Source: Opitutales bacterium
GTDB taxonomy: Bacteria; Verrucomicrobiota; Verrucomicrobiia; Opitutales; PNEW01
Assembly (NCBI GenBank): GCA_965219535.1
Contig: CBDCNV010000002.1
Location: 1,410,001 to 1,442,000, forward strand
Direction of reading: 5' to 3'
DNA length: 32,000 bases
In this document: in pieces, positions 251 through 29,041 of the stretch
How the letters are laid out: each line of letters opens with the position of its first letter
Numbering within the stretch: position 1 is the first letter of the stretch
Notes under the pieces: generated by a model
The model's database searches: none
The model's input: only the letters and a program-made list of their open reading frames with translations
What the model was told of the DNA's origin: nothing
Translations under genes and position numbers: made by a program

Positions 251-279
251 GTACCGAGGACGAAGTCCGACGTCTTCCA
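251..279 (+). repeat. G-element (GTACCGA-hairpin-GACATCTTCCA) copy 1
   Basis: GTACCGA GGAC-gaa-GTCC GACGTCTTCCA. Confidence 0.9.
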
Positions 280-297
280 AATCGTATATCTTTCCCA

Positions 298-333
298 CCG
301 AACCGTTGAACCGTGAACTGTGAACGGTGAACC
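298..333 (+). repeat. Degenerate GTGAAC-type heptamer array (5 units)
   Basis: CCGAACC GTTGAAC CGTGAAC TGTGAAC GGTGAAC C. Confidence 0.6.
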
Positions 334-383
334 CTCAAATTTCGATTGCAGAAAAGGGAAGTGTTATCAATCTGGAAAACACG

Positions 384-1145
384 ATGGGGAAATTAACGGG
401 TAAAGTTGCGCTGGTAACGGGCGGGGGTCGTGGACTTGGTCGGGCTTATGCGCTGCACCTGGCGAAACTGGGGGCGGATGTGGTGGTTAATGATATCAGC
501 ATGAAAGCGCATGAAGAGTACAATGAGGAAATCGGCGCGGACTCCGTTCCGGAAGAGATAGAAGCTCTGGGTGTGCAGGGCGTGGGGATTGTCGCTGATG
601 TGTCTGATAAAAAGCAGGTCGAGAAGATGGTGGCCGATATAGACGCAAAGTTCGGCCAACTGGATATTTTGATAAACAATGCGGGTGGCGCGCTCTGGGG
701 AGCCCGGGATTTTGATCCGATGTTTGCCTTGAATTTTCACGGGACAGTCTACTGTTGCGAGGCGGTCGCGGAAATTATGAAACGGCAGGGATCGGGCAAG
801 ATTGTTAATGTGGGCAGTCAGGCTGGAATGCGGGGAGGTGAAGGCGGTGCGTATGCAACAGCGAAGGCAGCAGTGATTCATTATACCCGCTGTTTGGCGC
901 TGAGCCTGGGACCGCATCAGATAAATGTAAACTGCATTGCACCGGCCTGGATATTAAGTTCACGCGCTATTGCGGGAGGTCGAGGAGAGAAGGAGACACG
1001 TGAAAAACTGGAGGCTACTATTGCCCTCGGTCGATTGGGTGTGCCGGATGACTGTGCAAAAGTCATTGAGTTTCTGGTCACGGATTTGTCAGACTATGTG
1101 ACCGGACAGACGATCGCGGTGTGTGGTGGCAATGTGCTGTTTTAA
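384..1145 (+). CDS. SDR-family oxidoreductase (short-chain dehydrogenase/reductase)
   Basis: ORF 327..1145. The translation has the TGGGRGLG Rossmann motif, NNAG and the YATAK catalytic motif. Start placed at ATG 384 (MGKLTGKVALVTGG) because the GTG at 327 lies inside the upstream GTGAAC heptamer array; exact start uncertain. Confidence 0.85.
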   Translation: MGKLTGKVALVTGGGRGLGRAYALHLAKLGADVVVNDISMKAHEEYNEEIGADSVPEEIEALGVQGVGIVADVSDKKQVEKMVADIDAKFGQLDILINNAGGALWGARDFDPMFALNFHGTVYCCEAVAEIMKRQGSGKIVNVGSQAGMRGGEGGAYATAKAAVIHYTRCLALSLGPHQINVNCIAPAWILSSRAIAGGRGEKETREKLEATIALGRLGVPDDCAKVIEFLVTDLSDYVTGQTIAVCGGNVLF

Positions 1146-1156
1146 ACGGAGCCTAT

Positions 1157-2272
1157 ATGAAGATAACTGAGATCAAACCCATCCTCACCGATCGTTATCT
1201 ACTTGTTCGTGTCTATACCGATGCTGGCATTGTGGGCAATGGCGAATCCGGTTGTTGGGCGCATCATAAACCAGTAGCTGAGACAATCAGGGAATTCAGC
1301 AATTACTTTATTGGCAAAGATCCCCGGTTAATCGAGCACCACCACCAGGTGTTGTCGCGGCAGACCCATTTTATGGGGGCGGTGATCAGTTCAGCGCTCA
1401 GCGCAATAGATATTGCGCTGTGGGATATTTTAGGAAAGTCGGTTGACCTGCCGGTGTATCAACTCCTTGGAGGAAAATGTCGCGAGAAGGTGCGGGTTTT
1501 TAATAACGTCAATGGCGATACTCTCGATGAGCGGGTCGCGTCGGCAAATCAAGCTGTTGTCGACGGGTTCACCTCATTGAGAATGACACCATTCTTCAGT
1601 GGGTTTGAAGAAAAGGATTCTACCGAGGTAATCACGACGGCCGTAGAGATGGTGGCTGCCGTGCGCGGTGCGGTTGGCGATAAGATTGACCTGGGTCTTG
1701 AGATCCATCGGAACCTTCAGCCCGATGAAGCGATCACCCTCGCGCAGGAACTGCGACCCTTTAAACTCAAATATTATGAAGACCCTCTCGCGCCCGAATG
1801 CAATGAAGCCCTTGAATATATCGCGCGTCAAATTGACATCCCGATGGCTGTTGGTGAACGCAGTTACAATCTGTTTCAATTTAAGGAACTGATTGATAAA
1901 AAAATCGCGTCGTTTATTCGTCCTGACGTGTCTCTCGCGGGTGGCTTTACCCAGGTGAAAAAAATCGCGGGGATTGCGGAGTCTGCTTTTGTGCAAATAT
2001 TTCCTCACCTCATGGGCAGCCCGGTTAACAATGCGGCTTTCACCCATTTAGCCGCGGCCATTCCCAATTATTATGTAATGGAATCGAATGCCCATTCCGA
2101 TGAACAATTGTCGCTCGTCGATAATCCCTTTCAAGTGTGTGACGGTTATCGGGAAATTCCAGACCGCCCCGGCATCGGCGTAGAAATAGATGAAGCCCGG
2201 TGTGAAAAGACACCCTTTGTCGGCCGTCAAATTTCAGGGAGTTTCCATGAGGATGGTTCCGTTGCGCATTGA
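1157..2272 (+). CDS. Enolase-superfamily enzyme (mandelate racemase/muconate lactonizing family, sugar-acid dehydratase-like)
   Basis: ORF 1121..2272. Start moved to ATG 1157 (MKITEIKPILTDRYLLVRV...), preceded by GGAG at 1148-1151 and 11 nt after the SDR stop, so probably the same operon. N-terminal capping domain plus barrel with acidic-ligand segments (LEIHRNL, YYEDP, VGERS) typical of this superfamily. Substrate unknown. Confidence 0.85.
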   Translation: MKITEIKPILTDRYLLVRVYTDAGIVGNGESGCWAHHKPVAETIREFSNYFIGKDPRLIEHHHQVLSRQTHFMGAVISSALSAIDIALWDILGKSVDLPVYQLLGGKCREKVRVFNNVNGDTLDERVASANQAVVDGFTSLRMTPFFSGFEEKDSTEVITTAVEMVAAVRGAVGDKIDLGLEIHRNLQPDEAITLAQELRPFKLKYYEDPLAPECNEALEYIARQIDIPMAVGERSYNLFQFKELIDKKIASFIRPDVSLAGGFTQVKKIAGIAESAFVQIFPHLMGSPVNNAAFTHLAAAIPNYYVMESNAHSDEQLSLVDNPFQVCDGYREIPDRPGIGVEIDEARCEKTPFVGRQISGSFHEDGSVAH

Positions 2273-2278
2273 ATATGA

Positions 2279-2307
2279 GTCAAAAGTCGAAGGTCTAAAG
2301 TCGAAAG
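2279..2307 (+). repeat. GTCGAAR heptamer array (C module)
   Basis: GTCAAAAGTCGAAGGTCTAAAGTCGAAAG. Begins 6 nt after the enolase-family stop. Confidence 0.8.
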
Positions 2308-2322
2308 CGTGGGAGAAGAATA

Positions 2323-2339
2323 GTGAACAGTAAACAGTG
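2323..2339 (+). repeat. GTGAACA/GTAAACA heptamer array (A module)
   Basis: GTGAACAGTAAACAGTG, abutting G-element copy 2. Confidence 0.8.
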
Positions 2340-2367
2340 TACCGAGGGTATATCCCGACATCTTCCA
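2339..2367 (+). repeat. G-element copy 2
   Basis: GTACCGA GGG-tatat-CCC GACATCTTCCA. Confidence 0.9.
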
Positions 2368-2374
2368 CGGTGGA

Positions 2375-2395
2375 CAGTGAACAGTAAACAGTGAG
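2375..2395 (+). repeat. A module
   Basis: CAGTGAACAGTAAACAGTGAG. Confidence 0.8.
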
Positions 2396-2420: not shown

Positions 2421-2523
2421 GTGATATCCGGAGTTTGATATCCGATATGAGAGATGTCGGTTTTTAACCTCGGTACGATTTTTGAAGTGTTAGAATTATA
2501 TCGTAAATCGCATATCGAATATC
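2421..2523. repeat. F module copy 2, interrupted by G-element copy 3
   Basis: GTGATATCCGGAGTTTGATATCCGATATGA [G3] GATTTTTGAAGTGTTAGAATTATATCGTAAATCGCATATCGAATATC. The right half is similar to 205-250. Confidence 0.75.
2451..2476 (-). repeat. G-element copy 3 (nested in the loop of a GATATC-rich hairpin)
   Basis: Reverse complement reads GTACCGA GGTT-aaa-AACC GACATCTC. Confidence 0.85.
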
Positions 2524-2552
2524 GTACCGAGGACGAAGTCCGACATCTTCCA
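2524..2552 (+). repeat. G-element copy 4
   Basis: GTACCGA GGAC-gaa-GTCC GACATCTTCCA. With its 17-nt tail it is a near-identical 46-mer to 251..296 (1 mismatch). Confidence 0.9.
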
Positions 2553-2652: not shown

Positions 2653-2687
2653 GGAGGGAATGTTCGGTTCACCGAACACCTCCCTCC
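2653..2687. repeat. Strong hairpin enclosing the stop codon of the SBP-permease gene
   Basis: GGAGGGA..GTTCGG-ttca-CCGAAC..TCCCTCC, a two-part stem of about 13 bp. No U-tract follows on the gene strand (GTCAAAAAG array instead). Confidence 0.7.
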
Positions 2688-5600
2688 ATCCTAATCCGCG
2701 GATCGAGCCACATGAGCAGAAGGTCGCTGACAAGGGTGCCTAAGACTCCGAACAGGCTGAGTACCATGAGCATCGATCCGGCCAGATACATATCTTCTAT
2801 CATCAGGGCATCGAGCAATAACGGGCCGACGGTGGGCAAGCTGAGCACCATCGCGACAATGGCACCGCCGGAGACGAGTTGGGGAAAGATCGCGCCGATA
2901 CTGGAGATAAACGGATTGAGCGCCAGGCGCACAGGATATTTAATCAACACTTTAAAAGGTCGCAACCCTTTGGCTATCGCGGTAATAACGTAAGGTTTTC
3001 TCAACTCGTCGAGCAAGTTGCCACGCATGACCCGGATCATACTCGCGGTTCCCGTGACACCGAGGACGACAATGGGCACCCAGATGTGCTGCAGCAGGTC
3101 GACAATTTTTCCTCTTGTCCACTCCGGTTGGACAGCGTACTCGGGTGAATACAGACCCGTGACATTAATGCCCAGATACTTCGCACTCCAATAGAGCAGA
3201 ATCAGTGCGAGGAGAAAACTGGGAACACTCATCCCGATGAAACCGATCAACGTAAATAGATAATCACCCAAGGTATATTGGCGAACGGCCGAATAGATGC
3301 CGATGGGCAGAGCGACAGCCCAGGTAAATAAAATGGTGCCAAGTGAAATAAGAAAAGTAAGCAGGATGCGATCGCCTACCACTTCATTGACGGTGTTTTG
3401 GTTCTCCATCGACAATCCCATGTGACCCTGCAGTAATCCCTGGTCTTTCTTTTCAAAGGAAGTAAACCAGTAAAGCCCAAGCCAGCGGGCGTACTGCTCG
3501 GTGATGGGCTCATCGAGGTTAAAAATCTCGCGCAGCTTATCGACTTCTTTCATATCCGAGCTGCTGCCTCTTAACTGCAGCTCCATGATTTTAGTATCGA
3601 TGAAATTCCCCGGTGGCAGCTGGATGATTACAAAAGAAATGACCGAGATGATGAGCAGCGACGGAATCATGATGAGCAACCGCCTTCCGATGTAAGGGTG
3701 CCGCACCCCGGTCATTATTATACCGCAGACAAAAACACCGATAAACAAATACTTAATCAGTAATCCCAGGCGATTAACGCTTTTCGATTCACCTTCGGCG
3801 TCAACCAGACCGTAAGGGGCAGGAGTGATTTCGATTAATTCTTTTTTTATCTGCGCAATCGTTCCAGGAGAATGATAAGAATCTTCGAAATAGTAGGTTT
3901 CTAACCCCGCGTGGGCGGGTGGGTGGAAGCGATTACCATAAAACGCGAGGCGGGGAACATTTTTAAAATCGTTTTTGACCACGACCGGGTGCGGCGGCGC
4001 AGTACCTATATTGATCGACCAGACATTTTCTGCCGCGATGTCGAATATTTTATGGAATTGTTCACGTTGCGCTTCACGGGTGGTCGCACCGAAAGCGGAT
4101 TCGAGCAGTATCATCGATCGCCGTAAGGGATGATCGATCGGGGGCTCGATCCCGCCGAATTGAGTGGCTTCAGGATTGCCTGAAAGTCCCCCTCCTAAAT
4201 ACCACTTAAAATAGCCGAATGCTTGAAGACCTGTTAACCCAACAAATCTTTCAGGTCCCACAAGAGGATTGAATTCACTTTCGGTGGCCCAAATGGAAAT
4301 TTCCACTTGGCGCGAATTTTGTTCTGCGGAAAAGAGCGGTAGCGAAGGCTGACGTCGGATAGCGCGAATACCGACACGGCCCCAATCTTCGATGACGAGC
4401 TCAGTAGGCCCCTCGTCTTCCCCCTCCGGCAATGAATAATGCCAGGTCATACGCGTGCCGTCCTTAAACGTGCGGTAACCTTCTGAATCCCTGCCGGTGA
4501 GACCTATCGCATCGAGTATTTGATTGGCCTGTTCGGGCGCATAATCGGTAAAACTTTTATGCAGTTTTTCATGGTGAAAATACGATTCCCTTCCGGGTGA
4601 TAACTGCGCGGGCTCTCCCATCCCATTATAAACGATATCGATGATTTGCCGGCGGTTGATGGCGAGGGAGAGCGCCTGGCGGAAACGCTTGTCTATTAAA
4701 AGATCATGTTTCATCTGGGTGACCGGATTATCGGGATCGACCAAAAGGTTCATATTCGCATGGATGAGGTAACGCGAGCGTGTAGCGGGAAACCAGTGAT
4801 ACACTTCGTAATCATTGTCTTCTCGTTGTGACATGAGAAGGGTGTATGAGAGTTCCATATTCCAAATTAAGAAGGTGATCGCCCCGCTGGCAGCTGATAC
4901 AGGTATCAGATTATAATTTTTTACTTCGTAAAATAATTGATCCACATAGGGGAGCTGATTGCCTTCGGTATCAACGGCCCAGTAGTAGGGATTGCGGACA
5001 AAAACCTGGGGAGGGTTGGCGTTATAAGTACGATAGATCCAGGGCCAAAGTCGCGGGATTGCGGGGTTTGACCAAAGTTTCAATAAATAGTAGAGCCTAC
5101 TGCGCGACGGCAATCTTCTCTCCTCCAGGGTAGCCTCGATGAGCGCGTCATCGCCGATTACAGGGTTATACTTTTCCAGGTAATGACGGGGCGCGCAATA
5201 TTCAGTGGCTCGAGCCAGGCGTTCAAGAAATGTTCCATAAGGTTGAGGGAAAACGAACTTTACGGTGTGATCATCGATTTTTATAACATCCCCTCTCTTA
5301 CCGCCTATATCCATCCAATCGGCAGTTTCCATCCCAAGGATATTAAAAGGTATTTCTTTTTCCCACCAGTAGAGGATATCATCGACGGTAAAAGGGTGTC
5401 CATCAGACCATTTCATCCCTTTTCGCAGGTAAAAGGTCCATTCCCTCTTGTCGGGACTGGATTCCCAACCCTTGGCGACGTGAGGCACGATCGGGTAACC
5501 GAGCGCAGAGAAGCGCACTAGCGTGGATCCGGCATAATATCCCTTGACTCCACCCACTTCTGTTGGGGAACCCACCACTTGCAACCAGGTACCGCCATAG

Positions 5601-5953
5601 TTGCCGATACTGTCCACTCCTTTGAGCACCACCGGCTCGGGCCCCACACGTTCAGCAACCGGTGGCAGTTTTCCCTCCTTTACCAAGTCAGTAAAAAGGG
5701 GTGATTCGGATTTTGGATACCACGTGCTCGATTCACCCACACTGTAGTCAACATCCTGTTGAATTTGAAAAATATCATCCTCGGTGAAACTCACATCTCT
5801 TGAATTATTTATGAATTCAATTTCCTCCGGGTCATAGTAAATGGGTTCCTCTTCCAGATCCGGTTTTAAGATATCACTCCAGAGATATAGAAAACCGAAA
5901 AAGCAACAACCCGTGAGGAAGAGAAGAAGGAAGGTTTTTAAAATTTTATTCAT
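2669..5953 (-). CDS. Fused ABC-transporter protein: N-terminal TM anchor + family-5 (Dpp/Opp-type) solute-binding domain + linker TM + DppB/OppB-type permease
   Basis: 1094-aa ORF. It has a TM helix at the N-terminus (FLLLFLTGCCFFGFLYLW) followed by an SBP_bac_5-like core (VPHVAKGWESSPDKREWTFYLRKGMKWSDGHPFTVDD). An extra TM helix follows (LIKYLFIGVFVCGIIMTGV, about nt 3700-3775). The canonical DppB-like permease then starts at RRLLIMIPSLL, with EAA-loop region YVITAIAKGLRPFKVLIKYPVRLALNP and C-terminal LDPRIR. Confidence 0.9.
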   Translation of the reverse strand: MNKILKTFLLLFLTGCCFFGFLYLWSDILKPDLEEEPIYYDPEEIEFINNSRDVSFTEDDIFQIQQDVDYSVGESSTWYPKSESPLFTDLVKEGKLPPVAERVGPEPVVLKGVDSIGNYGGTWLQVVGSPTEVGGVKGYYAGSTLVRFSALGYPIVPHVAKGWESSPDKREWTFYLRKGMKWSDGHPFTVDDILYWWEKEIPFNILGMETADWMDIGGKRGDVIKIDDHTVKFVFPQPYGTFLERLARATEYCAPRHYLEKYNPVIGDDALIEATLEERRLPSRSRLYYLLKLWSNPAIPRLWPWIYRTYNANPPQVFVRNPYYWAVDTEGNQLPYVDQLFYEVKNYNLIPVSAASGAITFLIWNMELSYTLLMSQREDNDYEVYHWFPATRSRYLIHANMNLLVDPDNPVTQMKHDLLIDKRFRQALSLAINRRQIIDIVYNGMGEPAQLSPGRESYFHHEKLHKSFTDYAPEQANQILDAIGLTGRDSEGYRTFKDGTRMTWHYSLPEGEDEGPTELVIEDWGRVGIRAIRRQPSLPLFSAEQNSRQVEISIWATESEFNPLVGPERFVGLTGLQAFGYFKWYLGGGLSGNPEATQFGGIEPPIDHPLRRSMILLESAFGATTREAQREQFHKIFDIAAENVWSINIGTAPPHPVVVKNDFKNVPRLAFYGNRFHPPAHAGLETYYFEDSYHSPGTIAQIKKELIEITPAPYGLVDAEGESKSVNRLGLLIKYLFIGVFVCGIIMTGVRHPYIGRRLLIMIPSLLIISVISFVIIQLPPGNFIDTKIMELQLRGSSSDMKEVDKLREIFNLDEPITEQYARWLGLYWFTSFEKKDQGLLQGHMGLSMENQNTVNEVVGDRILLTFLISLGTILFTWAVALPIGIYSAVRQYTLGDYLFTLIGFIGMSVPSFLLALILLYWSAKYLGINVTGLYSPEYAVQPEWTRGKIVDLLQHIWVPIVVLGVTGTASMIRVMRGNLLDELRKPYVITAIAKGLRPFKVLIKYPVRLALNPFISSIGAIFPQLVSGGAIVAMVLSLPTVGPLLLDALMIEDMYLAGSMLMVLSLFGVLGTLVSDLLLMWLDPRIRMEGGVR

Positions 5954-5983: not shown

Positions 5984-6010
5984 CAGTGAACAGTAAACAG
6001 TGAACAGTGG
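5984..6010 (+). repeat. A module upstream of SBP-permease gene 1
   Basis: CAGTGAACAGTAAACAGTGAACAGTGG. Confidence 0.85.
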
Positions 6011-6037: not shown

Positions 6038-6111
6038 GGTGGAGCGGGCTGTCCCCAGCGCGCTTACTTTTTAAAAATTTATATAAACGTGCTGGGACAG
6101 CCCGTTCCACC
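6038..6111. repeat. Long hairpin (O module pair): about 24-bp GC-rich stem, 25-nt AT-rich loop
   Basis: GGTGGAGCGGGCTGTCCCCAGCGCG ...CTTACTTTTTAAAAATTTATATAAA... CGTGCTGGGACAGCCCGTTCCACC. Confidence 0.85.
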
Positions 6112-6130
6112 TAATACGCTTTTGCGTCTT

Positions 6131-6185
6131 TACCTAAAACTTGACACTTAAAACCTAACACGCGCGATGACTTCCGTCATCGCGC
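6131..6185 (-). terminator. Hairpin containing the stop codon + U-rich heptamer array 3' of the SBP-permease paralogue
   Basis: GCGCGATGA-cttccg-TCATCGCGC (6162-6185, 9-bp stem; the stop codon is in one arm). On the transcript it is followed by GUGUUAGGUUUUAAGUGUCAAGUUUUAGG. Confidence 0.45.
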
Positions 6186-9100: not shown

Positions 9101-9463
9101 GCCGCCATAGCTACCGATACCTTCCACACCTTTAAACACTACCGGCTCGGGTCCTACCCGCTCTGCCACCAGGGGTAATTTGCCCTCGGCTACAAGTTCA
9201 GATAAGAGGGGTGACTCGGCTTGTGGATACCACGACGCGGTTTTCCCTTCACTGTAATCAACATCCAGCTGAATTTTGAAAAGATCATTTTCGGTGAAAC
9301 TCACATCTCTAGAATTTTCTATAAATTCAATTTCTTCCGGGTCATAGTAAATGGGTTCCTCTTCCAGATCCGGTTTTAGGATATCACTCCAAAGATAAAG
9401 AAATCCGAAAAAACAAAAACCCGTGAGGAGGAGGAGAAGGAAGGTTTTTAAAATTTTAATCAT
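6177..9463 (-). pseudogene. Frameshifted tandem paralogue of the fused SBP-permease gene
   Basis: ORFs 7742..9463 and 6177..7892 are collinear with the 1094-aa neighbour (roughly 75-80% aa identity by eye) but lie in different frames. The frame switch maps to the A5 run at 7838-7842 (T5 on the coding strand). Adding one T restores ...LFYFKQTSRQLEFSIW..., matching ...LFSAEQNSRQVEISIW... in the paralogue. The 3287-nt span is not a multiple of 3. This could be a real pseudogene, a homopolymer sequencing error or a slippage site. Confidence 0.8.
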
Positions 9464-9494: not shown

Positions 9495-9520
9495 CAGTGA
9501 ACAGTAAACAGTGAACAGTG
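9495..9520 (+). repeat. A module upstream of SBP-permease gene 2
   Basis: CAGTGAACAGTAAACAGTGAACAGTG. An inverted partner lies at 9740-9770. Confidence 0.85.
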
Positions 9521-9662
9521 AGAAAGTAGTGTCTAAGGTCAAAGGTCGGGGATGAATGGATGGTAGGAATGATGGAAGATTGAAATTCCCTTCGGTTCAA
9601 CACCAATTCTCCATACTTCCATACATCCAATATTCCATTTAAACCGCTGAACGGTGAGTCTA

Positions 9663-9686
9663 GGGTACAGCCCGACATCTTCCACC
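9663..9686 (+). repeat. G-element copy 5 (5' flank diverged)
   Basis: GGG-tacag-CCC GACATCTTCCACC, with TCTA in place of CCGA. Confidence 0.6.
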
Positions 9687-9770: not shown

Positions 9771-9780
9771 TAATTTTCTT

Positions 9781-9807
9781 CCTTTTATGACCTTTTGACT
9801 TTTTGAC
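9781..9807 (-). repeat. B module
   Basis: CCTTTTATGACCTTTTGACTTTTTGAC, followed by hairpin GCGCGC-tgat-GCGCGC. Confidence 0.8.
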
Positions 9808-13144: not shown

Positions 13145-13173
13145 TGGAAGATGTCGGGCTATGCCCTCGGTAC
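13145..13173 (-). repeat. G-element copy 6
   Basis: Reverse complement reads GTACCGA GGGC-ata-GCCC GACATCTTCCA. It starts 4 nt from the right end of the IS. Confidence 0.9.
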
Positions 13174-13202: not shown

Positions 13203-13253
13203 GTGAATTGCGTATAATTCTAAACGGATTTTACTATCTTTCCCTGAACCCTG
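13196..13253 (+). repeat. Q module
   Basis: AACAGTGGTGAATTGCGTATAATTCTAAACGGATTTTACTATCTTTCCCTGAACCCTG, roughly 70% similar by eye to 28639-28702. Confidence 0.55.
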
Positions 13254-13281
13254 TACCGAGAGCGTAGCTCGACATCTTCCA
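13253..13281 (+). repeat. G-element copy 7
   Basis: GTACCGA GAGC-gta-GCTC GACATCTTCCA. Confidence 0.9.
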
Positions 13282-16951: not shown

Positions 16952-16980
16952 TGGAAGATGTCGGGGTATACCCTCGGTAC
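16952..16980 (-). repeat. G-element copy 8
   Basis: Reverse complement reads GTACCGA GGG-tata-CCC(C) GACATCTTCCA. Confidence 0.9.
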
Positions 16981-20475: not shown

Positions 20476-20497
20476 GGGAAAATACCAGTGAACAGTG
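20471..20497 (+). repeat. M module
   Basis: GTGTCGGGAAAATACCAGTGAACAGTG (26 of 27 identical). Confidence 0.8.
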
Positions 20498-20552
20498 AAC
20501 AGTGAACAGTGAAAGAGCGCTGACGCGCGTGTTAAGTATTAAGTGTTAGGTA
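20486..20552 (+). repeat. Composite A-H-D module copy 1 (GTGAACA array + small GC hairpin + GTKTTAR array)
   Basis: (CAGTGAA)x3 CAGTGAAAGAGCGCTGACGCGCGTGTTAAGTATTAAGTGTTAGGTA. Confidence 0.85.
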
Positions 20553-20588
20553 TCGAAATCGGGATCGATATCGGTATCGGGTTTCGGG
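20549..20588 (+). repeat. P module (ATCG-rich)
   Basis: Shares the 19-nt core GGTATCGAAATCGGGATCG with 23541-23559. Confidence 0.65.
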
Positions 20589-20598: not shown

Positions 20599-20627
20599 GC
20601 ACCGAGGGTATAGCCCGACATCTTCCA
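20599..20627 (+). repeat. G-element copy 9
   Basis: GCACCGA GGG-tatag-CCC GACATCTTCCA. Confidence 0.9.
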
Positions 20628-22280: not shown

Positions 22281-22312
22281 CACTTTCGACTTTCGACCTT
22301 TGACTTTAGACC
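22281..22312 (-). repeat. C module
   Basis: CACTTTCGACTTTCGACCTTTGACTTTAGACC on the plus strand. Confidence 0.85.
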
Positions 22313-22364
22313 ATTCAATCTCTGATTGAATGTCCCACCGTTCAGCGGTTCTGGTCCTCCGGTT

Positions 22365-22398
22365 TGGAAGATGTCGTTCCGCGACTGCGGAACTCGGA
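22365..22398 (-). repeat. G-element copy 10 (long-stem variant)
   Basis: Reverse complement reads TCCGA GTTCCGC-agtc-GCGGAAC GACATCTTCCA. It begins 9 nt after the PhyH-3 stop, in gene sense. Confidence 0.8.
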
Positions 22399-22406
22399 AC
22401 CGCCTT

Positions 22407-23288
22407 TCAGGCTTTCCGGTTTTCCGGACCTCCGGTTCCCTGGTAATCATACTTCTTGTTCCGGCTGATGTAGTCGATCGGCCCTTTCACGAACTTTGTT
22501 GTGGTTTTCAAGGGGCTCCCTTCGAAAAGGGCTTCCGACCCTTTTAGAAATCGGAGCGAATTATTGGTATGCCACCAACGGACAAAGTGGACCATGGCGA
22601 TCATCGGCCGTGGGGTGTCGGTGTGATTGGGCATGCCGCGATGCCAGAGGCGCATGTCGCGGATGACTACGCCCCCAGCGGGGACGTTGGGTTGGAGGGG
22701 CTCGACTTCGGCGCGCCGTCTCGCCTCGTCTTCGGGCGGGATCTTGATATCTTTTTCATCGAACGAGCGGGTGGTATCGAGGTGGGTGCCGGGCCAGATC
22801 TCGGTGCTGCCATTTTCTGGGGTCATGTCGACTACCGGGACATTGACGACGAGGGCATAAGCGGGGGTAGCCGTTTTGAGACCGGGCCACAGCTGGCCGT
22901 AGTCGACGTGCAACGGTTGCTGAGTCTCGTTCGGCAGGCAGGTGTTACCGCTGTACATGTTGTTTTTCACCCCTTCGCCAAGCGTGGCCCTCGTGATTTG
23001 GACGACGAAGTCATTGAAGAGGACATCGCGGAAGAGGTAAGGGGGAAACGGTGGCGGGTCCTGTTGCAAGTGACCGTCGTTGAATTGAAAAGGGACATTG
23101 TCGAGTGCGAGGATGTCGGCGACATCAGCGACCATGCGCTCGCCCAGGGCCTCGATGTGTTTTGAGGAAATGACATCATGGAGAATAACGAAGCCGTCCT
23201 CGCGAAGCGCTTTAAGAGTAAGTTTTAAATGTTGGGCATCGAAGCTCTGGCTCTTTCGTTCATCCTCGCTGAGGTGTAATTCTAACAT
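22407..23288 (-). CDS. PhyH-family Fe(II)/2-oxoglutarate oxygenase, paralogue 3
   Basis: 293-aa ORF. HxD in QPLHVDYG; distal His in MRLWHRGMPNHTDTPR. GC-rich relative to most neighbours. Confidence 0.75.
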   Translation of the reverse strand: MLELHLSEDERKSQSFDAQHLKLTLKALREDGFVILHDVISSKHIEALGERMVADVADILALDNVPFQFNDGHLQQDPPPFPPYLFRDVLFNDFVVQITRATLGEGVKNNMYSGNTCLPNETQQPLHVDYGQLWPGLKTATPAYALVVNVPVVDMTPENGSTEIWPGTHLDTTRSFDEKDIKIPPEDEARRRAEVEPLQPNVPAGGVVIRDMRLWHRGMPNHTDTPRPMIAMVHFVRWWHTNNSLRFLKGSEALFEGSPLKTTTKFVKGPIDYISRNKKYDYQGTGGPENRKA

Positions 23289-23422: not shown

Positions 23423-23451
23423 GTCTAACGTCGAAGGTCGAAAGTCGAAGG
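23423..23451 (+). repeat. C module
   Basis: GTCTAACGTCGAAGGTCGAAAGTCGAAGG. Confidence 0.85.
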
Positions 23452-23465
23452 CAGGGGAGGGGATT

Positions 23466-23535
23466 AGTAAACAGTGAACAGTGAACAGTGAACAGTGAAA
23501 GAGCGCTGACGCGCGCGTTAAGATTTAGGTTAAAG
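23466..23535 (+). repeat. Composite A-H-D module copy 2
   Basis: AGTAAACAGTGAACAGTGAACAGTGAACAGTGAAAGAGCGCTGACGCGCGCGTTAAGATTTAGGTTAAAG. Confidence 0.85.
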
Positions 23536-23691: not shown

Positions 23692-24597
23692 GTGAGTGAA
23701 TCTGAGACACCTGTGCTGACGAGTGAAGAGGTTGGTAAATTTTTAAATGATGGGTTTTTCATCGTTCGGGATCTGTTACCGCCCGCGGCGATTCAGCCAT
23801 TTATCGATGAATTAGTACTGAAAGTCGACGTGGCGGCAAATGCCGCCGTCGAAAAAGGTGTGCTCGACCCGGCAGATACCTTCGACGATGCGCCGTTTGA
23901 GACTCGTCTCGGTTTGATTTGCAAGGCATGCTCGGAGCGCAACTGGGTATGGAAGCATTACTTCGGTGAAGCGAGTATCTACGATGAGATACAAAAACCG
24001 CGATCGAATGGCATGTTTATCCTGCGAACCTGGCCATCGCTCCTGGATCTTGTCGAATCGGTAATCGGTCCCGAGATATTTGCCCACCCGCAATATAATA
24101 TTCGCACTAAACTTCCCGATCAGGTAGAGACTGTCATTCCCTGGCATCAGGACCTGGCCTTCTTGAACGCGAATGAGGTCGGCGATACCCTTGTCTTGAA
24201 TTTCTGGATTCCTCTTGTCGATGCGCGGGCTGAAAACGGTTGTATGCAGATGATGCGCGGGACCCACGCGCTGCCGCTGTTGCCCCACAATCTGCAGCTG
24301 CCGGTGCCTGACGGCAAGATACTCGTCGGCATCGAGGACCGTGATCTTCCAGACGGGGAGATTGTGACAGGCGAGATGAATGTCGGCGATGTGCTTATGA
24401 CCACTGAACGCGTCCTTCATCGATCGCTGCCCAACATCTCGGACACCGTCCGCTGGAGCGTTGATACCCGCTACAGCGCCCTGGGAAAACCGACCGGTCG
24501 CGACGACGTGCCGGGCTTTGTCGCCCGCAGCCGTGAACATCCTGACCGCGTCGCCCAATCAGCACGCGATTGGAAGCAAAAATTTGAAAACGTTTAA
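23692..24597 (+). CDS. PhyH-family Fe(II)/2-oxoglutarate oxygenase, paralogue 4
   Basis: 301-aa ORF with a GTG start at 23692. HxD in IPWHQDLAFL; distal His in RVLHRSLPNISDTVR. Confidence 0.8.
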   Translation: MSESETPVLTSEEVGKFLNDGFFIVRDLLPPAAIQPFIDELVLKVDVAANAAVEKGVLDPADTFDDAPFETRLGLICKACSERNWVWKHYFGEASIYDEIQKPRSNGMFILRTWPSLLDLVESVIGPEIFAHPQYNIRTKLPDQVETVIPWHQDLAFLNANEVGDTLVLNFWIPLVDARAENGCMQMMRGTHALPLLPHNLQLPVPDGKILVGIEDRDLPDGEIVTGEMNVGDVLMTTERVLHRSLPNISDTVRWSVDTRYSALGKPTGRDDVPGFVARSREHPDRVAQSARDWKQKFENV

Positions 24598-25402: not shown

Positions 25403-26854
25403 ATGAAGTCCAAAACCATCGCGTCAGTCGTCCTGCTACTGAGCGTTTTCGCAATGCCGCTAACCGCCACCGATCCCATCGCCATAGACTCGCGGCGGGA
25501 ACTGTTTATTGATCATCATTTGATCGGATCGCTCAACGGTGTGCGCCTCGTGTTGCATCGCCCGCAACCGCGCGAAATCGTCTTCGAGTTCGATCAGCCC
25601 TGGGAGGGACTCTACAGCGGGTACGAGACCGTGCTCAAAGACGGCGAGACCTACCGGTTCTATTATCGGGGGATGCCCGAAGCAAAACACGATCTCGATA
25701 CGGAAGTCATCTGTGTCGCGGATAGCAAAGACGGTATTCACTGGACGCGGCCCAAACTGGGCATATACGAAGTCCGCGGCACGAAAGACAACAACGTGGT
25801 GCTGGCGCGTAATCGCGGCTGCCACAACCTCGCACCGTTCATAGACACCAATCCGAATTGCCCGGCCGAAGAACGGTATAAAGCGCTGGGCGGGACCGGC
25901 GAACCGGGTCTGCTGGCCTTTGTATCGGCCGACGGTCTGCACTGGAAGCAACTCCAGGCGGACCCTGTAATCACCAAAGGCGCATTTGATTCCCAGAACA
26001 ACGCATTCTGGTCCGTCAGCGAAAAACAGTACGTTTGCTATTTCCGAGTCTTCCGGGATGGAATTCGTTGGATTGCGCGTACGACGTCGATGGATTTCGT
26101 CCACTGGACGGAACCGATCGACCTGGAGCTTGGCGGCCAGCCCCGCGAACACCTCTACACGAACCAGTTCGACCCCTACGTCCGAGCTCCGCACATCTAT
26201 CTGGGACTTCCTACGCGTTACCTGCCCGGGCGTCGTGTATTGACGGACGAGGAAGCCAAAGGGATCGGCACACCCACGAAATGGAACTACGTCGATGATA
26301 GTACGGACATCCTGCTTGCATCAGCACGCGGTGGTGACAACTTCCAGCGCACATTCATGGAGGCCTTTGTTCGGCCGGGAGCAGACCTGCAAAACTGGAC
26401 GTCACGAGCAAATTACGCGGCGCGCGGCATCGTGCAAACGGGCGAACGAGAATTGTCCCTCTTCGTGAAGCACCACTCCGGCTATCCCTCGAATCACGTC
26501 CAGCGCTATGTGATCCGACCGGACGGCTTTGTCTCCGTGCAAGCTCCTTACAACGGTGGCGAGTTGATCACCAAACCGTTCACCTTCACCGGCGCAAAGT
26601 TGTCGCTTAACTACGCCACTTCCGCTGTAGGTGGGATATTCGTCGAGATTCAGACTCCCGACGGTAAACCAATCGAAGGATTTGCACTTGCGGACTGCTT
26701 GGAAATGATCGGAGACCGGATATACCACACCGTAAACTGGAAAAAAGGTTCGGATGTGAATTCCCTGGCCGGCAAGCCCGTCCGAGTGAAGTTCGCAATG
26801 AAAGACGCCGACCTCTACTCGATGCAATTCACTAGCAGGGGAGGGACAAAGTGA
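25403..26854 (+). CDS. Secreted protein, predicted beta-propeller glycoside-hydrolase-like fold (function unknown)
   Basis: ORF 25382..26854. Start moved to ATG 25403 (MKSKTIASVVLLLSVFAMPLTA signal peptide). Repeated segments such as DQPWEG...YRFYYRG, SKDGIHWTRP, SADGLHWKQ and SMDFVHWTEP resemble blades of GH32/43-type propellers. The family assignment is from pattern memory only. Confidence 0.6.
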   Translation: MKSKTIASVVLLLSVFAMPLTATDPIAIDSRRELFIDHHLIGSLNGVRLVLHRPQPREIVFEFDQPWEGLYSGYETVLKDGETYRFYYRGMPEAKHDLDTEVICVADSKDGIHWTRPKLGIYEVRGTKDNNVVLARNRGCHNLAPFIDTNPNCPAEERYKALGGTGEPGLLAFVSADGLHWKQLQADPVITKGAFDSQNNAFWSVSEKQYVCYFRVFRDGIRWIARTTSMDFVHWTEPIDLELGGQPREHLYTNQFDPYVRAPHIYLGLPTRYLPGRRVLTDEEAKGIGTPTKWNYVDDSTDILLASARGGDNFQRTFMEAFVRPGADLQNWTSRANYAARGIVQTGERELSLFVKHHSGYPSNHVQRYVIRPDGFVSVQAPYNGGELITKPFTFTGAKLSLNYATSAVGGIFVEIQTPDGKPIEGFALADCLEMIGDRIYHTVNWKKGSDVNSLAGKPVRVKFAMKDADLYSMQFTSRGGTK

Positions 26855-26874
26855 ACGGTGAACAGTAAACAGTG
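26851..26874 (+). repeat. A module containing the stop codon of the preceding gene
   Basis: GTGAACGGTGAACAGTAAACAGTG. The TGA stop (26852-26854) is part of the first unit. Confidence 0.85.
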
Positions 26875-26902
26875 TACCGAGGGTATGTCCCGACATCTTC
26901 CA
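26874..26902 (+). repeat. G-element copy 11 (left end of MITE-like copy a)
   Basis: GTACCGA GGG-tatgt-CCC GACATCTTCCA. Confidence 0.9.
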
Positions 26903-27038
26903 TCCAGACCGAGCACCAAACATCAATTATCAAATCACAAATAAGCTCCAATGATTGAAATACCAATTCATGAAATAAATGAAAAGACAGTTTGGTTATT
27001 TATAATTGTAAATTGGATTTTATTTGAAATTTGTGATT

Positions 27039-27065
27039 GGGGGATGTCGGGCTTTGCCCTCGGTA
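27039..27065 (-). repeat. G-element copy 12 (right end of MITE-like copy a)
   Basis: Reverse complement reads TACCGA GGGC-aaa-GCCC GACATCCCCC. Confidence 0.85.
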
Positions 27066-27109
27066 GCTTTTTGTAATTTCTCGACTTGTCCTCGACTCCC
27101 CTGAACCCT

Positions 27110-27138
27110 GTACCGAGAGCGTAGCTCGACATCTTCCA
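27110..27138 (+). repeat. G-element copy 13
   Basis: GTACCGA GAGC-gta-GCTC GACATCTTCCA. Confidence 0.9.
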
Positions 27139-27149
27139 CCCTGAACCCT

Positions 27150-27177
27150 GTACCGAGGGTATATCCGACATCTTCCA
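27150..27177 (+). repeat. G-element copy 14
   Basis: GTACCGA GGG-tatat-CC GACATCTTCCA (one stem base missing). Separated from copy 13 by CCCTGAACCCTG. Confidence 0.85.
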
Positions 27178-27289
27178 CCGTGAACCGAGAGAGAAAAGAG
27201 AAGGAGTCAGACCCTGCATTTTCGCAATTATAATTTTGCAGGAACGCAGAGCCTAACCCCTTTAGACCTTCGTTAGTAATCACGCTCTC

Positions 27290-27844
27290 TTATTGATTAA
27301 TCTTAACCGTGACAGGTACCGTATTCTGTACCGTGTCAAAGATGACAGAGTGCTGGATAATCTCCTTTAACTCTTCTTCATCCGCATCAGATTGTATATT
27401 GAATCCAATCTCAATATCCTGAAACCCGGGACGCACCTTAGGATCTATTCCCAGTAAACCTTGAAGATCTAATTTTCCTTTAGCTTTTGATTTCATTTTA
27501 TATATCGTTATCCCTCTGGCAGCGGCATGATAGGCGATCGTCGTCGTTAAACATCCTGCTAGGGCATGCAGTAAATATTCAGCAGGATTCACGGCCTTGT
27601 CTGTTCCCAGAAGAGAAATAGGTTCATCATTGGTATATTCGAATTCCTGAGTCCGCGTTGTGTCTTCTTCCTTCGCTCCGTAGAAGCCTTTAAAGGTTGA
27701 TTTATTTATCGACCCATCGACCCAGGTGTTGTCAGCCCTGAATTCAAACTGGGCTAATTCAGGATCACTTTTCATGACTTCGATGTTTTCATTGAGTTGA
27801 GCGACGTCTACTCCGTTTACTTTTGTTTCTATTGTTTTGTTCAT
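27290..27844 (-). CDS. OsmC/Ohr-family peroxiredoxin-like protein
   Basis: 184-aa ORF with the conserved LLHALAGCLTTTIAYHAAARGI segment of the OsmC family. AT-rich compared with flanking genes. Confidence 0.8.
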   Translation of the reverse strand: MNKTIETKVNGVDVAQLNENIEVMKSDPELAQFEFRADNTWVDGSINKSTFKGFYGAKEEDTTRTQEFEYTNDEPISLLGTDKAVNPAEYLLHALAGCLTTTIAYHAAARGITIYKMKSKAKGKLDLQGLLGIDPKVRPGFQDIEIGFNIQSDADEEELKEIIQHSVIFDTVQNTVPVTVKINQ

Positions 27845-27878
27845 TTTTTGTCCTTTGTTGTGTTTTTATGGTTAATAT

Positions 27879-27892
27879 ACAGACATGTCTGT
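27879..27892. promoter_or_regulatory. Candidate TetR operator O2 (perfect palindrome ACAGACATGTCTGT) upstream of the osmC-like gene
   Basis: A perfect 14-bp palindrome lies in the 71-nt tetR-osmC spacer, 35 nt upstream of the osmC ATG. It has the same half-sites as the site upstream of tetR. Confidence 0.6.
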
Positions 27893-27915
27893 CTGTTTTA
27901 TTCGAAAAAAATATA

Positions 27916-28500
27916 TTATTTAATAAGCGACTCTACTTGCCTTATCGCGTGGCGTACAGGCCACAGTTCATGATATATCATCACCAGAGCAATCGCTCCC
28001 GTAAGTATGTTTAAGTAATCGTTTGTTAAGATTTCGACATCGAGATGTCTGTATTTTTTCCCGTCGGACTGTATAAGGTCAGATGAGATGTCTTTAATGA
28101 TTGCCTTCAAAGTTTCATAATGGAATTTACTCTCCTTTCTTACCGGATCTGCATGATTAGAGATCTCGGGCACCATACGAAGGAAACCGCAGCCGTGCAG
28201 CCCATTTTCTATAATCCATGGCTCAATACATTCAATCAAAGCCATAAACCTGGTCCGTGGAGTTTTCTTTTCGTGGATAGCAGCTTTTATATCCCGGATC
28301 TCCTTAATATTAAGATTGGTGATATACGCTAAGTTCAAGTGATCTTTAGTCGGAAAATGCGAATAGAATGTGGCCTTTGATACGTTTGCTTTCTTTATAA
28401 TTTCGTTCGTCCCGGTTTGATGATACCCCTGTTGGTAGAACAACTCTGTTGCCGTCTTCAAAATCCGGTCTCTCGCTGGACTGTCTTTCTTTACCATCAT
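27916..28500 (-). CDS. TetR/AcrR-family transcriptional regulator
   Basis: 194-aa ORF. N-terminal HTH RDRILKTATELFYQQGYHQTGTNEIIKKANVSKATFYSHFPTKDHL. It lies upstream of, and co-directional with, the OsmC-like gene. Confidence 0.9.
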   Translation of the reverse strand: MMVKKDSPARDRILKTATELFYQQGYHQTGTNEIIKKANVSKATFYSHFPTKDHLNLAYITNLNIKEIRDIKAAIHEKKTPRTRFMALIECIEPWIIENGLHGCGFLRMVPEISNHADPVRKESKFHYETLKAIIKDISSDLIQSDGKKYRHLDVEILTNDYLNILTGAIALVMIYHELWPVRHAIRQVESLIK

Positions 28501-28517
28501 TGAGCAAAGCTAAATAA

Positions 28518-28533
28518 GACAGACCTGTCTGTC
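28518..28533. promoter_or_regulatory. Candidate TetR operator O1 (GACAGAC-CT-GTCTGTC) upstream of tetR
   Basis: 7-bp inverted arms with a 2-nt centre, 18 nt upstream of the tetR ATG. It shares ACAGAC-NN-GTCTGT with O2. Confidence 0.6.
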
Positions 28534-28620
28534 AAGTATTTTTAAAAAAAAATGCCTATAAGCACAAACAGGTACTTTAACGTGTTAAATTTAAATAGGT
28601 TAGGACCTGTGTGGGGGGAT

Positions 28621-28646
28621 CAGTGAACAGTAAACGGTGAACAGTG
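28621..28646 (+). repeat. A module
   Basis: CAGTGAACAGTAAACGGTGAACAGTG. Confidence 0.85.
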
Positions 28647-28702
28647 GGAGAGTTGCGTGTTATTTCTAATGGAGATTATTATATTTCCCTGAACCCTGAA
28701 CC
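28639..28702 (+). repeat. Q module
   Basis: AACAGTGGGAGAGTTGCGTGTTATTTCTAATGGAGATTATTATATTTCCCTGAACCCTGAACC. Confidence 0.55.
28687..28702 (-). repeat. E module (C-strand)
   Basis: CCCTGAACCCTGAACC. Confidence 0.75.
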
Positions 28703-28727
28703 TCTTCATTCGTATATCGTTCTACCT

Positions 28728-28803
28728 GATATCCGACGTTTGATATCCGATGTTTGATGTGCAAGAAGTTAAATCAACATCGTATATCGCATATCAGATA
28801 TCA
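28728..28803. repeat. F module copy 3
   Basis: GATATCCGACGTTTGATATCCGATGTTTGATGT...ACATCGTATATCGCATATCAGATATCA, followed directly by the tail TAGATCGTATATCTTTC with no G-element. Confidence 0.75.
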
Positions 28804-28825
28804 TAGATCGTATATCTTTCTCCCT

Positions 28826-28885
28826 GTACCGAGGGCATAGCCCGCCTGTCGTCCATAGCCTTGTGCGACGGATGGACATCTTCCA
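28826..28885 (+). repeat. G-element copy 15, expanded (left end of MITE-like copy b)
   Basis: GTACCGA GGGC-ata-GCCC, then a 31-nt insert (GCCTGTCGTCCATAGCCTTGTGCGACGGATG, itself able to pair GTCCAT/ATGGAC), then GACATCTTCCA. Confidence 0.75.
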
Positions 28886-29015
28886 TTCAGACCGAGCACC
28901 AAACATCAATTATCAAATCACAAATAAGCTCCAATGATTGAAATACCAATTCATGAAATAAATGAAAAGACAGTTTGGTTATTTAATAATTGTAAATTGG
29001 ATTTTATTTGAAATT

Positions 29016-29041
29016 GGGGATGTCGGGCTTTGCCCTCGGTA
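29016..29041 (-). repeat. G-element copy 16 (right end of MITE-like copy b)
   Basis: Reverse complement reads TACCGA GGGC-aaa-GCCC GACATCCCC. Confidence 0.85.

Follow-up and report, generated by a model that had tools for sequence, protein, structure and literature searches.

In a 32,000-nt stretch of genomic DNA from a marine bacterium of the order Opitutales (phylum Verrucomicrobiota; assembly GCA_965219535.1, contig CBDCNV010000002.1, positions 1,410,001 to 1,442,000; hereafter the window), a short element is present in 16 copies, in each of which a hairpin of variable sequence is placed between two conserved arms. We suggest that this element is a non-autonomous miniature insertion module that acts at the level of DNA, is of the kind represented by small dispersed repeats (SDRs) and repetitive extragenic palindromes (REPs), and is mobilised in trans by a putative factor, a reading that we consider about equally likely to be right or wrong. 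In this model, the putative trans factor, which would be encoded elsewhere in the genome, would recognise the folded single strand together with its two arms. New copies would land in heptamer arrays of the N4-GAA type and take the place of a GAA, thereby leaving the same four bases on both sides without a true target duplication. Onward spread to arrays of the same type would probably occur by short-homology copying, i.e. by gene conversion or by single strands annealing at the replication fork, and such copying would explain why subfamilies track array types and why copies are found at homology breakpoints.

Copies of the element are mostly 29 nt long (range 25-36 nt). The invariant arms, 5'-[G/C]TACCGA and GACATC[T/C][T/C]CCA-3', are not complementary to each other, and the stem between them, which always opens with G and closes with C, varies in sequence and length with its pairing kept (2-7 bp; 4 bp in 48 of the 76 copies scored among 81 model matches). 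The exact pattern GTACCGA-N(8-22)-GACATCTTCCA occurs eight times in the window, as compared to 0.00 occurrences expected from dinucleotide-preserving shuffles. A first-pass annotation of this DNA had reported 16 copies, in both orientations and all outside coding sequence. Each of them is visible on reading the sequence, and a covariance model built from 27 distinct 29-nt copies retrieves all 16 together with one weak candidate (Table 1). Both orientations are seen, the stem variants had been read correctly, and credible genes contain no copies, overlaps being limited to a spurious 121-aa open reading frame (ORF) that spans repeats. While copies are present at all the starts reported, four of these had to be shifted (2451 to 2448-2476(-), 9663 to 9662-9684(+), 27039 to 27038-27066(-) and 29016 to 29014-29042(-)). 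The concern that the copies are restricted to this one locus is not borne out, because the model has 81 matches in 292 kb of Opitutales genome blocks and 89 in 359 kb of marine metagenome contigs, where both samples were chosen for carrying a copy.

The pairing of the stem is supported by covariation in two sets of copies. Among the 27 distinct 29-nt copies, stem columns 8-11 pair with columns 15-18; 91.7% of the cells are standard pairs and 12 cells are changed on both sides, neither value being reached in any of 500 shuffles, and pairing registers that are slid relative to this one give at most 55% paired cells. In an independent set of 39 distinct metagenome copies, of which the alignment was fitted to the model and hence leans towards structure, 98.6% are paired with 14 double-sided changes, again with 0 of 500 shuffles reaching these values. 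Thus, the design of conserved arms around a variable hairpin is real, and the compensatory stems in both sets support the earlier proposal that selection acts on pairing and not on a peptide or a linear site.

The loops point to the type of nucleic acid that folds. C(GNA)G triloops are present in 36 of the 81 model matches (GTA in 20, GAA in 12 and GCA in four); all GNA loops together amount to about 43 and all RNA loops (R = purine) to about 56, while other loops (TAA, TAT, pentaloops) are found in about a quarter of the copies. In many copies, GCGTAGC, GCGAAGC or GCGCAGC is located exactly at the tip of the hairpin. These copies have in common with the mini-hairpin DNA d(GCGNAGC) described by Hirao and colleagues the C(GNA)G loop with its sheared G.A pair; this DNA melts at 70-76 C, needs the GNA loop and is nuclease-resistant (PMC13037366), and, unlike the present repeat, it is a structural motif and not a genetic element. 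The C(GNA)G loops are on the GTACCGA...TTCCA strand only, and the complement would carry TNC loops. The strand specificity of the GNA mini-hairpin is the main argument for an action of single-stranded DNA and, therefore, we infer that the element acts as folded single-stranded DNA on the GTACCGA...TTCCA strand. A kink-turn reading of the invariant CGA...GAC, with tandem G.A pairs, was discarded because there is no conserved closing helix.

In the scans described below, only a few Opitutales genomes and related marine metagenome contigs carry the element in multiple copies. The host of the window belongs to a marine Opitutales lineage with about 92% identity to the Opitutales metagenome-assembled genome (MAG) OY829953.1, in which the region around 1.96-2.00 Mb has 90-95% identity to genes of the window in a rearranged order, with intergenic DNA that is largely unalignable. 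A protein of the window maps to the ENA metagenome contig ERZ25067264:ctg828868 (117 kb), and a cyanobacterial origin, which the heptamer arrays and a GCGATCGC in a coding repeat had suggested, was rejected on the basis of this match and the genome scan. In a genome scan with the exact pattern and one genome per GTDB species, at least 101 matches were listed; among these, more than one match or recurrence across blocks was seen only in Opitutales/Puniceicoccaceae (OY829953.1, CBDANS01 and JAJFLR01), and there was one further match in a Puniceicoccaceae MAG. Unrelated taxa account for at least about 60 single matches, about the level estimated for chance, and no cyanobacterial record was among the matches listed. 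A scan of viral contigs for the element gave 0 matches, and the corresponding metagenome scan provided the 40 JGI contigs of the marine metagenome set. In the following, L with a number labels related loci that were compared, L020...L095 being OY829953.1 blocks.

Comparison of these loci reveals filled and empty versions of the same site. At least eight copies of a composite repeat of about 190 nt carry the element and at least six lack it, and the empty site GGATATC-GAA-AATCG corresponds to the filled site GGATATC-[element]-AATCG. Similarly, the site of copy 2448 is AAAAATC-GAA-TATCGG in empty paralogues and AAAAATC-[element]-TATCGG, with identical flanks, in the window and L062, which are the only filled ones among the composites compared. 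In a second, AT-rich unit of about 190 nt, a CAA is replaced at copies 27038 and 29014, and the paralogue in L048 is empty; the two AT-rich units in the window are about 99% identical, yet their elements lie one heptamer apart. In each case, replacement of GAA or CAA by the element is a net gain of 26 nt. A difference between population contigs was also found: the marine contigs L136 and L142, with 99% identity extending for over 1 kb to either side, are distinguished by exactly one 33-nt unit that consists of CCAT and an element differing at five positions from the neighboring element.

Copies also nest with other small repeats and mark homology breakpoints. Copy 28826 is split by an insert, and the resulting 60-nt nested composite recurs, with an identical insert but different flanks, at L048 858-917. 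Moreover, homology ends at the element in copy 16952 relative to OY829953.1, in copy 13253 relative to L065, at the right end of an Avd-like cassette (see below), and in L133 relative to L136/L142, where the left flank and the element are in common and the right flank is unrelated. Several simpler descriptions of these sites were considered and rejected. Copy 16952 is not a clean 33-nt insertion with a 4-bp target duplication because the homology to OY829953.1 simply stops there; the flanking 4-nt repeat is not taken as a target duplication because heptamer register explains it equally well and the two cleanest pairs show replacement of GAA; inspection revealed no Watson-Crick pairing of the loop or stem with the flanking 4-mers that could act as an IS608-style guide; and retention of the replaced trinucleotide as the loop agrees with one case but not with another.

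The coding share of the sampled DNA is about 81% by a crude ORF call; all copies are intergenic, with 23 in convergent and eight in divergent regions. Copies typically lie within heptamer units. In 16 of 76 unique copies, the left and right flanking four bases are identical, and in 43 of the 76 they agree at three or more of the four positions; at offsets of 1-6 nt there are no exact flank matches, and the flanking 4-mers, which vary among CCCT, AATC, CNGT and ACCC, agree only in the 4-nt register. In the genome set, subfamilies of the element track their flanking context: CGTAG loops are found with CCCTGAA units and TATAG loops with GAACAGT/GAACGGT units, the GGACGAAGTCC subfamily sits within the 190-nt composite and the subfamily CTACCGAG...CCCTCA accompanies CGAAAAT units. 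The 25-nt form of the element sits within a further composite. Arrays of tandem heptamers or octamers (GAACAGT, CCCTGAA, GTCGAAA/GTCAAAAG, ATATCGN and TAAAACC) are present in nearly every intergenic region of the window and resemble the short tandemly repeated repetitive (STRR) sequences of cyanobacteria, here outside that phylum. They often occur in inverted pairs, such that an entire intergenic region folds into a giant hairpin (z -4.8 and -6.6).

The orientation of copies in OY829953.1 may bear on the process by which they arise. In blocks from 0-2.05 Mb, seven copies are on the plus and 15 on the minus strand, while in blocks from 2.19-4.49 Mb, 15 are on the plus and four on the minus strand (Fisher p=0.004 by copy and 0.009 by block). 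This switch is possibly a replication-strand bias, which would fit a process involving single-stranded DNA at the fork.

Several observations weigh against a mobile module that acts as single-stranded DNA. The replichore bias depends on an origin that is assumed to lie near coordinate 0 and on GC skew by block, which is noisy. In its direction, the top strand is opposite to the G-rich strand, which is the reverse of the bias that Ton-Hoang et al. 2010 reportedly found for IS200/IS605 elements. Nearest-neighbor DNA energies of the hairpin are weak (-2 to -3.4 kcal/mol, z about -1). Because the stability of GCGNAGC is not captured by standard energy parameters (PMC13037366), weak predicted energies are accounted for, and the evidence for the hairpin is, therefore, covariation and loop type and not predicted stability. 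No mobilising enzyme was found in the window, which encodes ordinary enzymes and IS481 DDE transposases, and eight of the 10 copy-flanked ORFs in related loci are ordinary enzymes or have no family match; the blocks of OY829953.1 cover about 6% of that genome. Most contig pairs across samples are 99.9-100% identical and differ by array-length indels only and, therefore, the element must be active slowly, more slowly than arrays slip. For the 33-nt indel, deletion between tandem copies is an alternative to insertion. Some of the copies are due to duplication of larger composites, as for the whole GGACGAAGTCC subfamily, and independent insertions must, therefore, be far fewer than copies. Lastly, subfamilies correlate with arrays less closely in the metagenome set than in the genome set.

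A stricter version of the DNA-level reading would be that the copies are REPs or their equivalents, i.e. single-stranded DNA hairpins cut and pasted by a Y1 HUH transposase encoded elsewhere, either a REP-associated tyrosine transposase (RAYT) or an IS200/IS605 TnpA. We regard this as unlikely, although many features agree with it. Like REPs and REPINs, the element is a short extragenic hairpin repeat with hundreds of copies and complementary stem changes among subfamilies; it is enriched 3' of genes, marks landing or breakpoint sites for other mobile DNA, and would be moved in single-stranded form by an enzyme acting in trans. Its preference for convergent intergenic regions is as in REPs (PMC3733652), and GTAG REPs with RAYTs are known in Opitutus terrae of the same order (PMC3116915, PMC3733652). 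However, in REPs the GTAG (or CGTC) tetranucleotide abuts the palindromic stem (PMC3733652), whereas the tag here is GTAC/CTAC and is split from the stem by the invariant CGA, the typical stem is 4 bp as opposed to 6-9 bp, and the copies are mostly singletons and not REPIN doublets, inverted pairs being few (2448/2524 and 13145/13253). Accordingly, the membership in REPs that the first-pass annotation had brought up does not hold, and the present element also differs from REPs in that its arms are long, conserved and non-palindromic and its copies are embedded in heptamer arrays. The resemblance to the ends of IS200/IS605 elements (IS608, ISDra2) is similarly partial. In both cases, a strand-specific DNA hairpin, with a stem that co-varies in the present element, lies beside conserved single-stranded bases, which define the ends in IS200/IS605; there is no true target duplication, at least not a clear one once heptamer register is considered; and a replication-strand bias is expected. 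By contrast, IS200/IS605 elements have two different hairpins with a transposase gene between them and insert seamlessly 3' of one fixed tetra- or pentanucleotide, while the present element has one hairpin, its insertion is accompanied by loss of 1-3 target bases, the flanking 4-mers differ by subfamily although the stem-side arms, i.e. the location of the guide bases in IS608, are invariant, and the apparent strand bias is the opposite one. In agreement with the first-pass annotation, Pfam detects no Y1 enzyme in the window but only two IS481-family DDE transposases; none was detected among 26 ORFs of the window or flanked by copies, and there is no RAYT in the window or the 10 copy-flanked ORFs, OY829953.1 being covered to about 6%.

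Alternatively, the element could be a passive host sequence, such as a site for a nucleoid or regulatory protein or a replication-stalling structure, that is moved by composite duplication and by gene conversion between arrays. Spread of the 190-nt composite explains the GGACGAAGTCC subfamily entirely, copies also travel within the Avd-like cassette and the AT-rich unit, subfamilies track array types, copies lie at homology breakpoints, and population contigs vary in array length and almost never in the presence of the element. Nevertheless, we consider this possibility quite unlikely, because just a GAA is replaced in otherwise paralogous composites with perfectly kept flanks, the contexts of the element include five or more unrelated arrays or flanks, the DNA outside the 9-11 nt that flank type-A copies is unique, two different variants adjoin copies of the AT-rich unit that are otherwise about 99% identical, the nested composite is present at unrelated loci and one 33-nt indel does segregate in the population. 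Even less probable in our view is that the element works at the level of RNA, either as a structured motif in untranslated regions (UTRs; a stabiliser, terminator or processing site) or by spreading through an RNA intermediate and reverse transcription. Top-strand G.U-compatible wobbles are somewhat commoner than A.C (six versus three among distinct copies), several copies in sense orientation, including 22365 and 26874, lie 7-20 nt after a stop codon, and genes for a truncated reverse transcriptase and for Avd-like proteins adjoin copies in related loci. However, 33 copies are on the same strand as the nearest gene and 29 on the opposite strand, i.e. there is no preference, some copies are in divergent promoter regions, and no U-tract was seen 3' of the stem, the 3' arm GACATCTTCCA being without a T-run. 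These observations speak against the 3'-UTR motif proposed earlier, and the orientation and missing U-tract also led us to reject an intrinsic terminator. In addition, the stability of the C(GNA)G triloop is specific to DNA, there is no poly-A or other scar of retro-insertion, the reverse transcriptase is a pseudogene fragment seen in one genome only, and no Rfam family matches the element even at E<=1. As a class of mechanism, recognition of a single-stranded DNA hairpin by an enzyme acting in trans is still the best candidate.

The consensus is, as far as checked, unlike that of described families, as the first-pass annotation had surmised. Rfam gave 0 matches at gathering score in the window and 0 at E<=0.1 in six related loci, while at E<=1 the only match in 26800-29200 was a chance one to a microRNA; furthermore, GTACCGAG and CGACATC are absent from the supplementary files of the Opitutus terrae GTAG-REP paper and, thus, from its REP lists. 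With miniature inverted-repeat transposable elements (MITEs; Correia/NEMIS, Nezha), the element shares that it is a non-autonomous intergenic repeat with presence/absence polymorphism, but MITEs exceed 100 nt and have terminal inverted repeats that match a DDE transposase as well as a fixed target duplication, none of which is found here. A CRISPR repeat, an integron attC site and a dif-like site were rejected because spacer arrays are absent and the two arms do not complement each other.

The closest described parallel would instead be the SDRs of Nostocaceae, to which we liken the element by their described features and not by sequence. Elhai et al. 2008 is said to report eight families, SDR1-SDR8, of intergenic repeats of 21-27 nt in Nostoc punctiforme and relatives with nested insertions, several of which reportedly share a hairpin with compensatory changes and are often found in tandem heptamers or mini-elements; an RNA intermediate was reportedly favored for their spread. 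We know of no enzyme associated with SDRs. At 25-36 nt, the present element is slightly longer than SDRs but likewise tens of nucleotides in size, intergenic, folded into a hairpin with compensatory changes, embedded in heptamer repeats or mini-elements, and subject to nested insertion. Precise insertion at a fixed point of a short motif is a further likeness, with SDR5 in HIP1 corresponding to the element at the GAA of the heptamer: SDR5 inserts precisely inside HIP1 (PMC5861425, PMC4390886), and SDR-like repeats were not found outside Nostocaceae among HIP1-rich cyanobacteria (PMC5861425). The differences are that the present host belongs to Verrucomicrobiota and not to Nostocaceae, and that the GNA mini-hairpin points to DNA and not to RNA. 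In a k-mer survey of 200 kb of pNPUN01, a plasmid of N. punctiforme, no small repeat family comparable to this one emerged. On this comparison by description, the element would represent an SDR-like kind in a new phylum.

A possible link between the two lineages concerns genes for four-helix-bundle proteins. OY829953.1 has a gene for a 144-aa protein of the TIGR02436/PF05635 (Avd-like) four-helix-bundle family in a cassette of about 640 nt that is present twice with about 99% identity (Table 1). Inverted GTGAACAG arrays bracket the cassette, both copies end exactly at the 3' end of an element and, at one of the loci, an inverted element adjoins the opposite end. The terminal elements differ at four of 29 positions although the cassettes are nearly identical. 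On pNPUN01, inverted heptamer arrays likewise enclose each of the three genes annotated as "four helix bundle protein", with a different heptamer in each case. Four-helix-bundle genes may be linked to the origin of heptamer arrays, a connection for which we found no paper that relates TIGR02436/Avd-like genes to heptamer repeats. In addition, contig JAJFLR010000087 has, between copies of the element and adjoining TTGTCATTGCGAGGAGC...GCGACG repeats, a truncated reverse transcriptase gene of the type found in diversity-generating retroelements (DGRs; motif YVRYMDD), which is fused in frame to a tail that resembles an FGE-sulfatase/C-lectin variable region. Because Avd-like cassettes and the DGR-type reverse transcriptase adjoin copies of the element, we speculate that a Nostoc-type intergenic syndrome, which would comprise heptamer arrays, self-nesting hairpin modules and TIGR02436/Avd-like cassettes bracketed by inverted arrays, arose independently in this verrucomicrobial lineage by means of shared machinery. 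In this scenario, to which we give only an outside chance, the Avd-like protein would be part of the machinery, possibly together with a reverse transcriptase or single-strand annealing at the fork, and the 29-nt element would be its substrate, protected by the mini-hairpin.

Table 1. Copies of the hairpin element and accompanying features. Positions refer to the window unless a locus label precedes them.
Feature	Position	Strand	Hairpin or sequence	Context or remark	Score (bits)
Copy	251..279	+	GGAC-GAA-GTCC; one 3'-arm mismatch	Within ~190-nt composite repeat; gene start 327 lies 48 nt downstream	45.6
Copy	2339..2367	+	GGG-TATAT-CCC	Within GAACAGT/AAACAGT heptamer array	48.7
Copy	2448..2476	-	GGTT-AAA-AACC; 3' arm GACATCTCTCA	In ~190-nt composite, replacing a GAA; paralogous composites empty there	40.6
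Copy	2524..2552	+	GGAC-GAA-GTCC	Within ~190-nt composite repeat	50
5'-truncated copy	9662..9684	+	Model positions 7-29 only; arm GTACCGA absent	Interior of intergenic giant hairpin; closing inverted arrays CAGTGAA/CACTGTT	24.3
Copy	13145..13173	-	GGGC-ATA-GCCC	3' end 3 nt from end of IS481-family insertion sequence (11766-13141)	51.6
Copy	13253..13281	+	GAGC-GTA-GCTC (holds GCGTAGC)	In CCCTGAA units; left flank homologous to L065:904, right flank unrelated (breakpoint)	49.3
Copy	16952..16980	-	GGG-TATAC-CCC	GAACGGT context; OY829953.1 homology stops exactly at copy	47.7
Copy	20599..20627	+	GGGT-ATA-GCCC (T.G wobble); 5' arm GCACCGA	Divergent intergenic region; orthologous OY829953.1 region has a different copy at a different position	45.5
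Long-stem variant, 36 nt, 7-bp stem	22365..22400	-	GTTCCGA-GTTCCGC-AGTC-GCGGAAC-GACATCTTCCA	7 nt 3' of stop codon; predicted DNA fold -8.3 kcal/mol, z -3.8	22
Copy	26874..26902	+	GGG-TATGT-CCC	Adjoins left end of ~190-nt AT-rich unit	44.6
Copy, subfamily	27038..27066	-	CTACCGAG-GGCAAAGCC-CGACATCCCCCA	In AT-rich unit; L048 paralogue empty	43.3
Copy	27110..27138	+	GAGC-GTA-GCTC	First of tandem pair, spacer CCCTGAACCCT	49.3
Copy, 28 nt	27150..27177	+	1-nt stem deletion	Second of tandem pair with 27110..27138	37.6
Split copy, 60 nt	28826..28885	+	GGGC-ATA-GCCC	Foreign insert between hairpin and 3' arm	22.2
Nested 30-nt insert in copy 28826	28845..28874	+	CCTGTCGTCCATAGCCTTGTGCGACGGATG	Second small-repeat family
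Copy, subfamily	29014..29042	-	CTACCGAG...CCCC	In second AT-rich unit; one heptamer off site used in 27038 unit	35
Weak degenerate 17th candidate	9573..9598	-	GAACCGAAGGGAATTTCAATCTTCCA	E=0.33	14.9
Heptamer/octamer arrays	130-333, 2278-2392, 2619-2652, 5984-6009, 9495-9521, 9740-9807, 10845-10988, 11737-11769, 18201-18346, 20486-20579, 22282-22316, 23430-23499, 26850-26874, 28687-28816, 31236-31265
~190-nt composite	108-304, 2400-2620; L065 619-741; L077 4023-4161, 4266-4398; L066 272-400; L045 5510-5622; L075 7122-7230		AAGCCATTCATGTATCTTTCT...ATATCGN heptamers...CCCTGAGCGAAGTCGAAGGG	Many copies, with or without element
AT-rich ~190-nt unit	26903-27100, 28886-29090; L048 ~700-960
OsmC/TetR gene pair	27290-28500			Low GC
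Second small-repeat family	28845-28874; L048 877-907; many OY829953.1 loci		Consensus GGCCATAGCCTTGGCGACGGCTG	~14 copies per 200 kb
Third small hairpin family	2570-2600, 17060-17110; L045, L077, L088 and others		CCCTGCCTGCCCTGAGCGAAGTCGAAGGG
IS481-family insertion sequence	11766-13141, 31236-32000			DDE, rve domain
PhyH paralogues	9946-10827, 15533-16390, 22407-23288, 23692-24597; also L024, L048, L060
SBP_bac_5/BPD_transp_1 fusion	2669-5953			1094 aa
Paralogue of the fusion	6177-9463			~80% identical; two overlapping ORFs
Gene with internal tandem repeats	18522-19367		GAACA[TC]CC and GCGATCGC	15-54-nt repeats at 18640-18990
Avd-like cassette	L081 5335-5927; L020 ~6110-6721			OY829953.1
Four-helix-bundle genes, pNPUN01	L103 1617-1982; L106 9762-10184, 12595-13050			N. 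punctiforme
Truncated DGR-type reverse transcriptase	L069 589-1215	-		JAJFLR010000087

The element is accompanied by other small repeats and mobile units. The 190-nt composite seems to be a mobile or duplicating unit itself. The two AT-rich units in the window (about 99% identity) bracket the low-GC OsmC/TetR gene pair, and the segment at 26.9-29.1 kb is missing at the syntenic position of OY829953.1. The second small-repeat family, with the consensus GGCCATAGCCTTGGCGACGGCTG, inserts inside the element and also adjoins it in marine contigs, where the left flank is gcgacggcggct, while the third, a small hairpin family with CCCTGCCTGCCCTGAGCGAAGTCGAAGGG, is often located directly 3' of the element or at the right end of the 190-nt composite. 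The IS481-family insertion sequence, of which the window has two copies, occupies a different locus in OY829953.1.

The gene content of the window is otherwise ordinary, comprising enzymes, transporters and a TetR in addition to the two IS481-family DDE transposases. Paralogues of the phytanoyl-CoA dioxygenase family (PhyH) are unusually dense; they are accompanied by GFO/IDH/MocA oxidoreductases, and copies of the element flank several of these genes. A fusion of an SBP_bac_5 solute-binding domain to a BPD_transp_1 permease has a paralogue nearby, the split of which into two overlapping ORFs may be a frameshift or reflect a pseudogene. The repeat region of the gene at 18522-19367 has no Pfam match, and a 9-nt indel separates the window from L001 in this region.

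With its size, the element is near the lower limit of mobile DNA, and its copies mark rearrangement breakpoints and will fragment or mis-join short-read assemblies of these marine Verrucomicrobiota. The mini-hairpin GCGNAGC on one strand between two fixed arms is a concrete structural hypothesis that is cheap to address in vitro. To our knowledge, no enzyme has been identified for the movement of SDRs, a question open since 2008, or for the origin of heptamer STRR arrays, open since the 1990s. Now that a phylogenetically distant second lineage shows the same combination of features, comparative genomics can be applied to this question, i.e. by asking which genes are common to element-rich Opitutales and Nostocaceae and absent from their element-free relatives.

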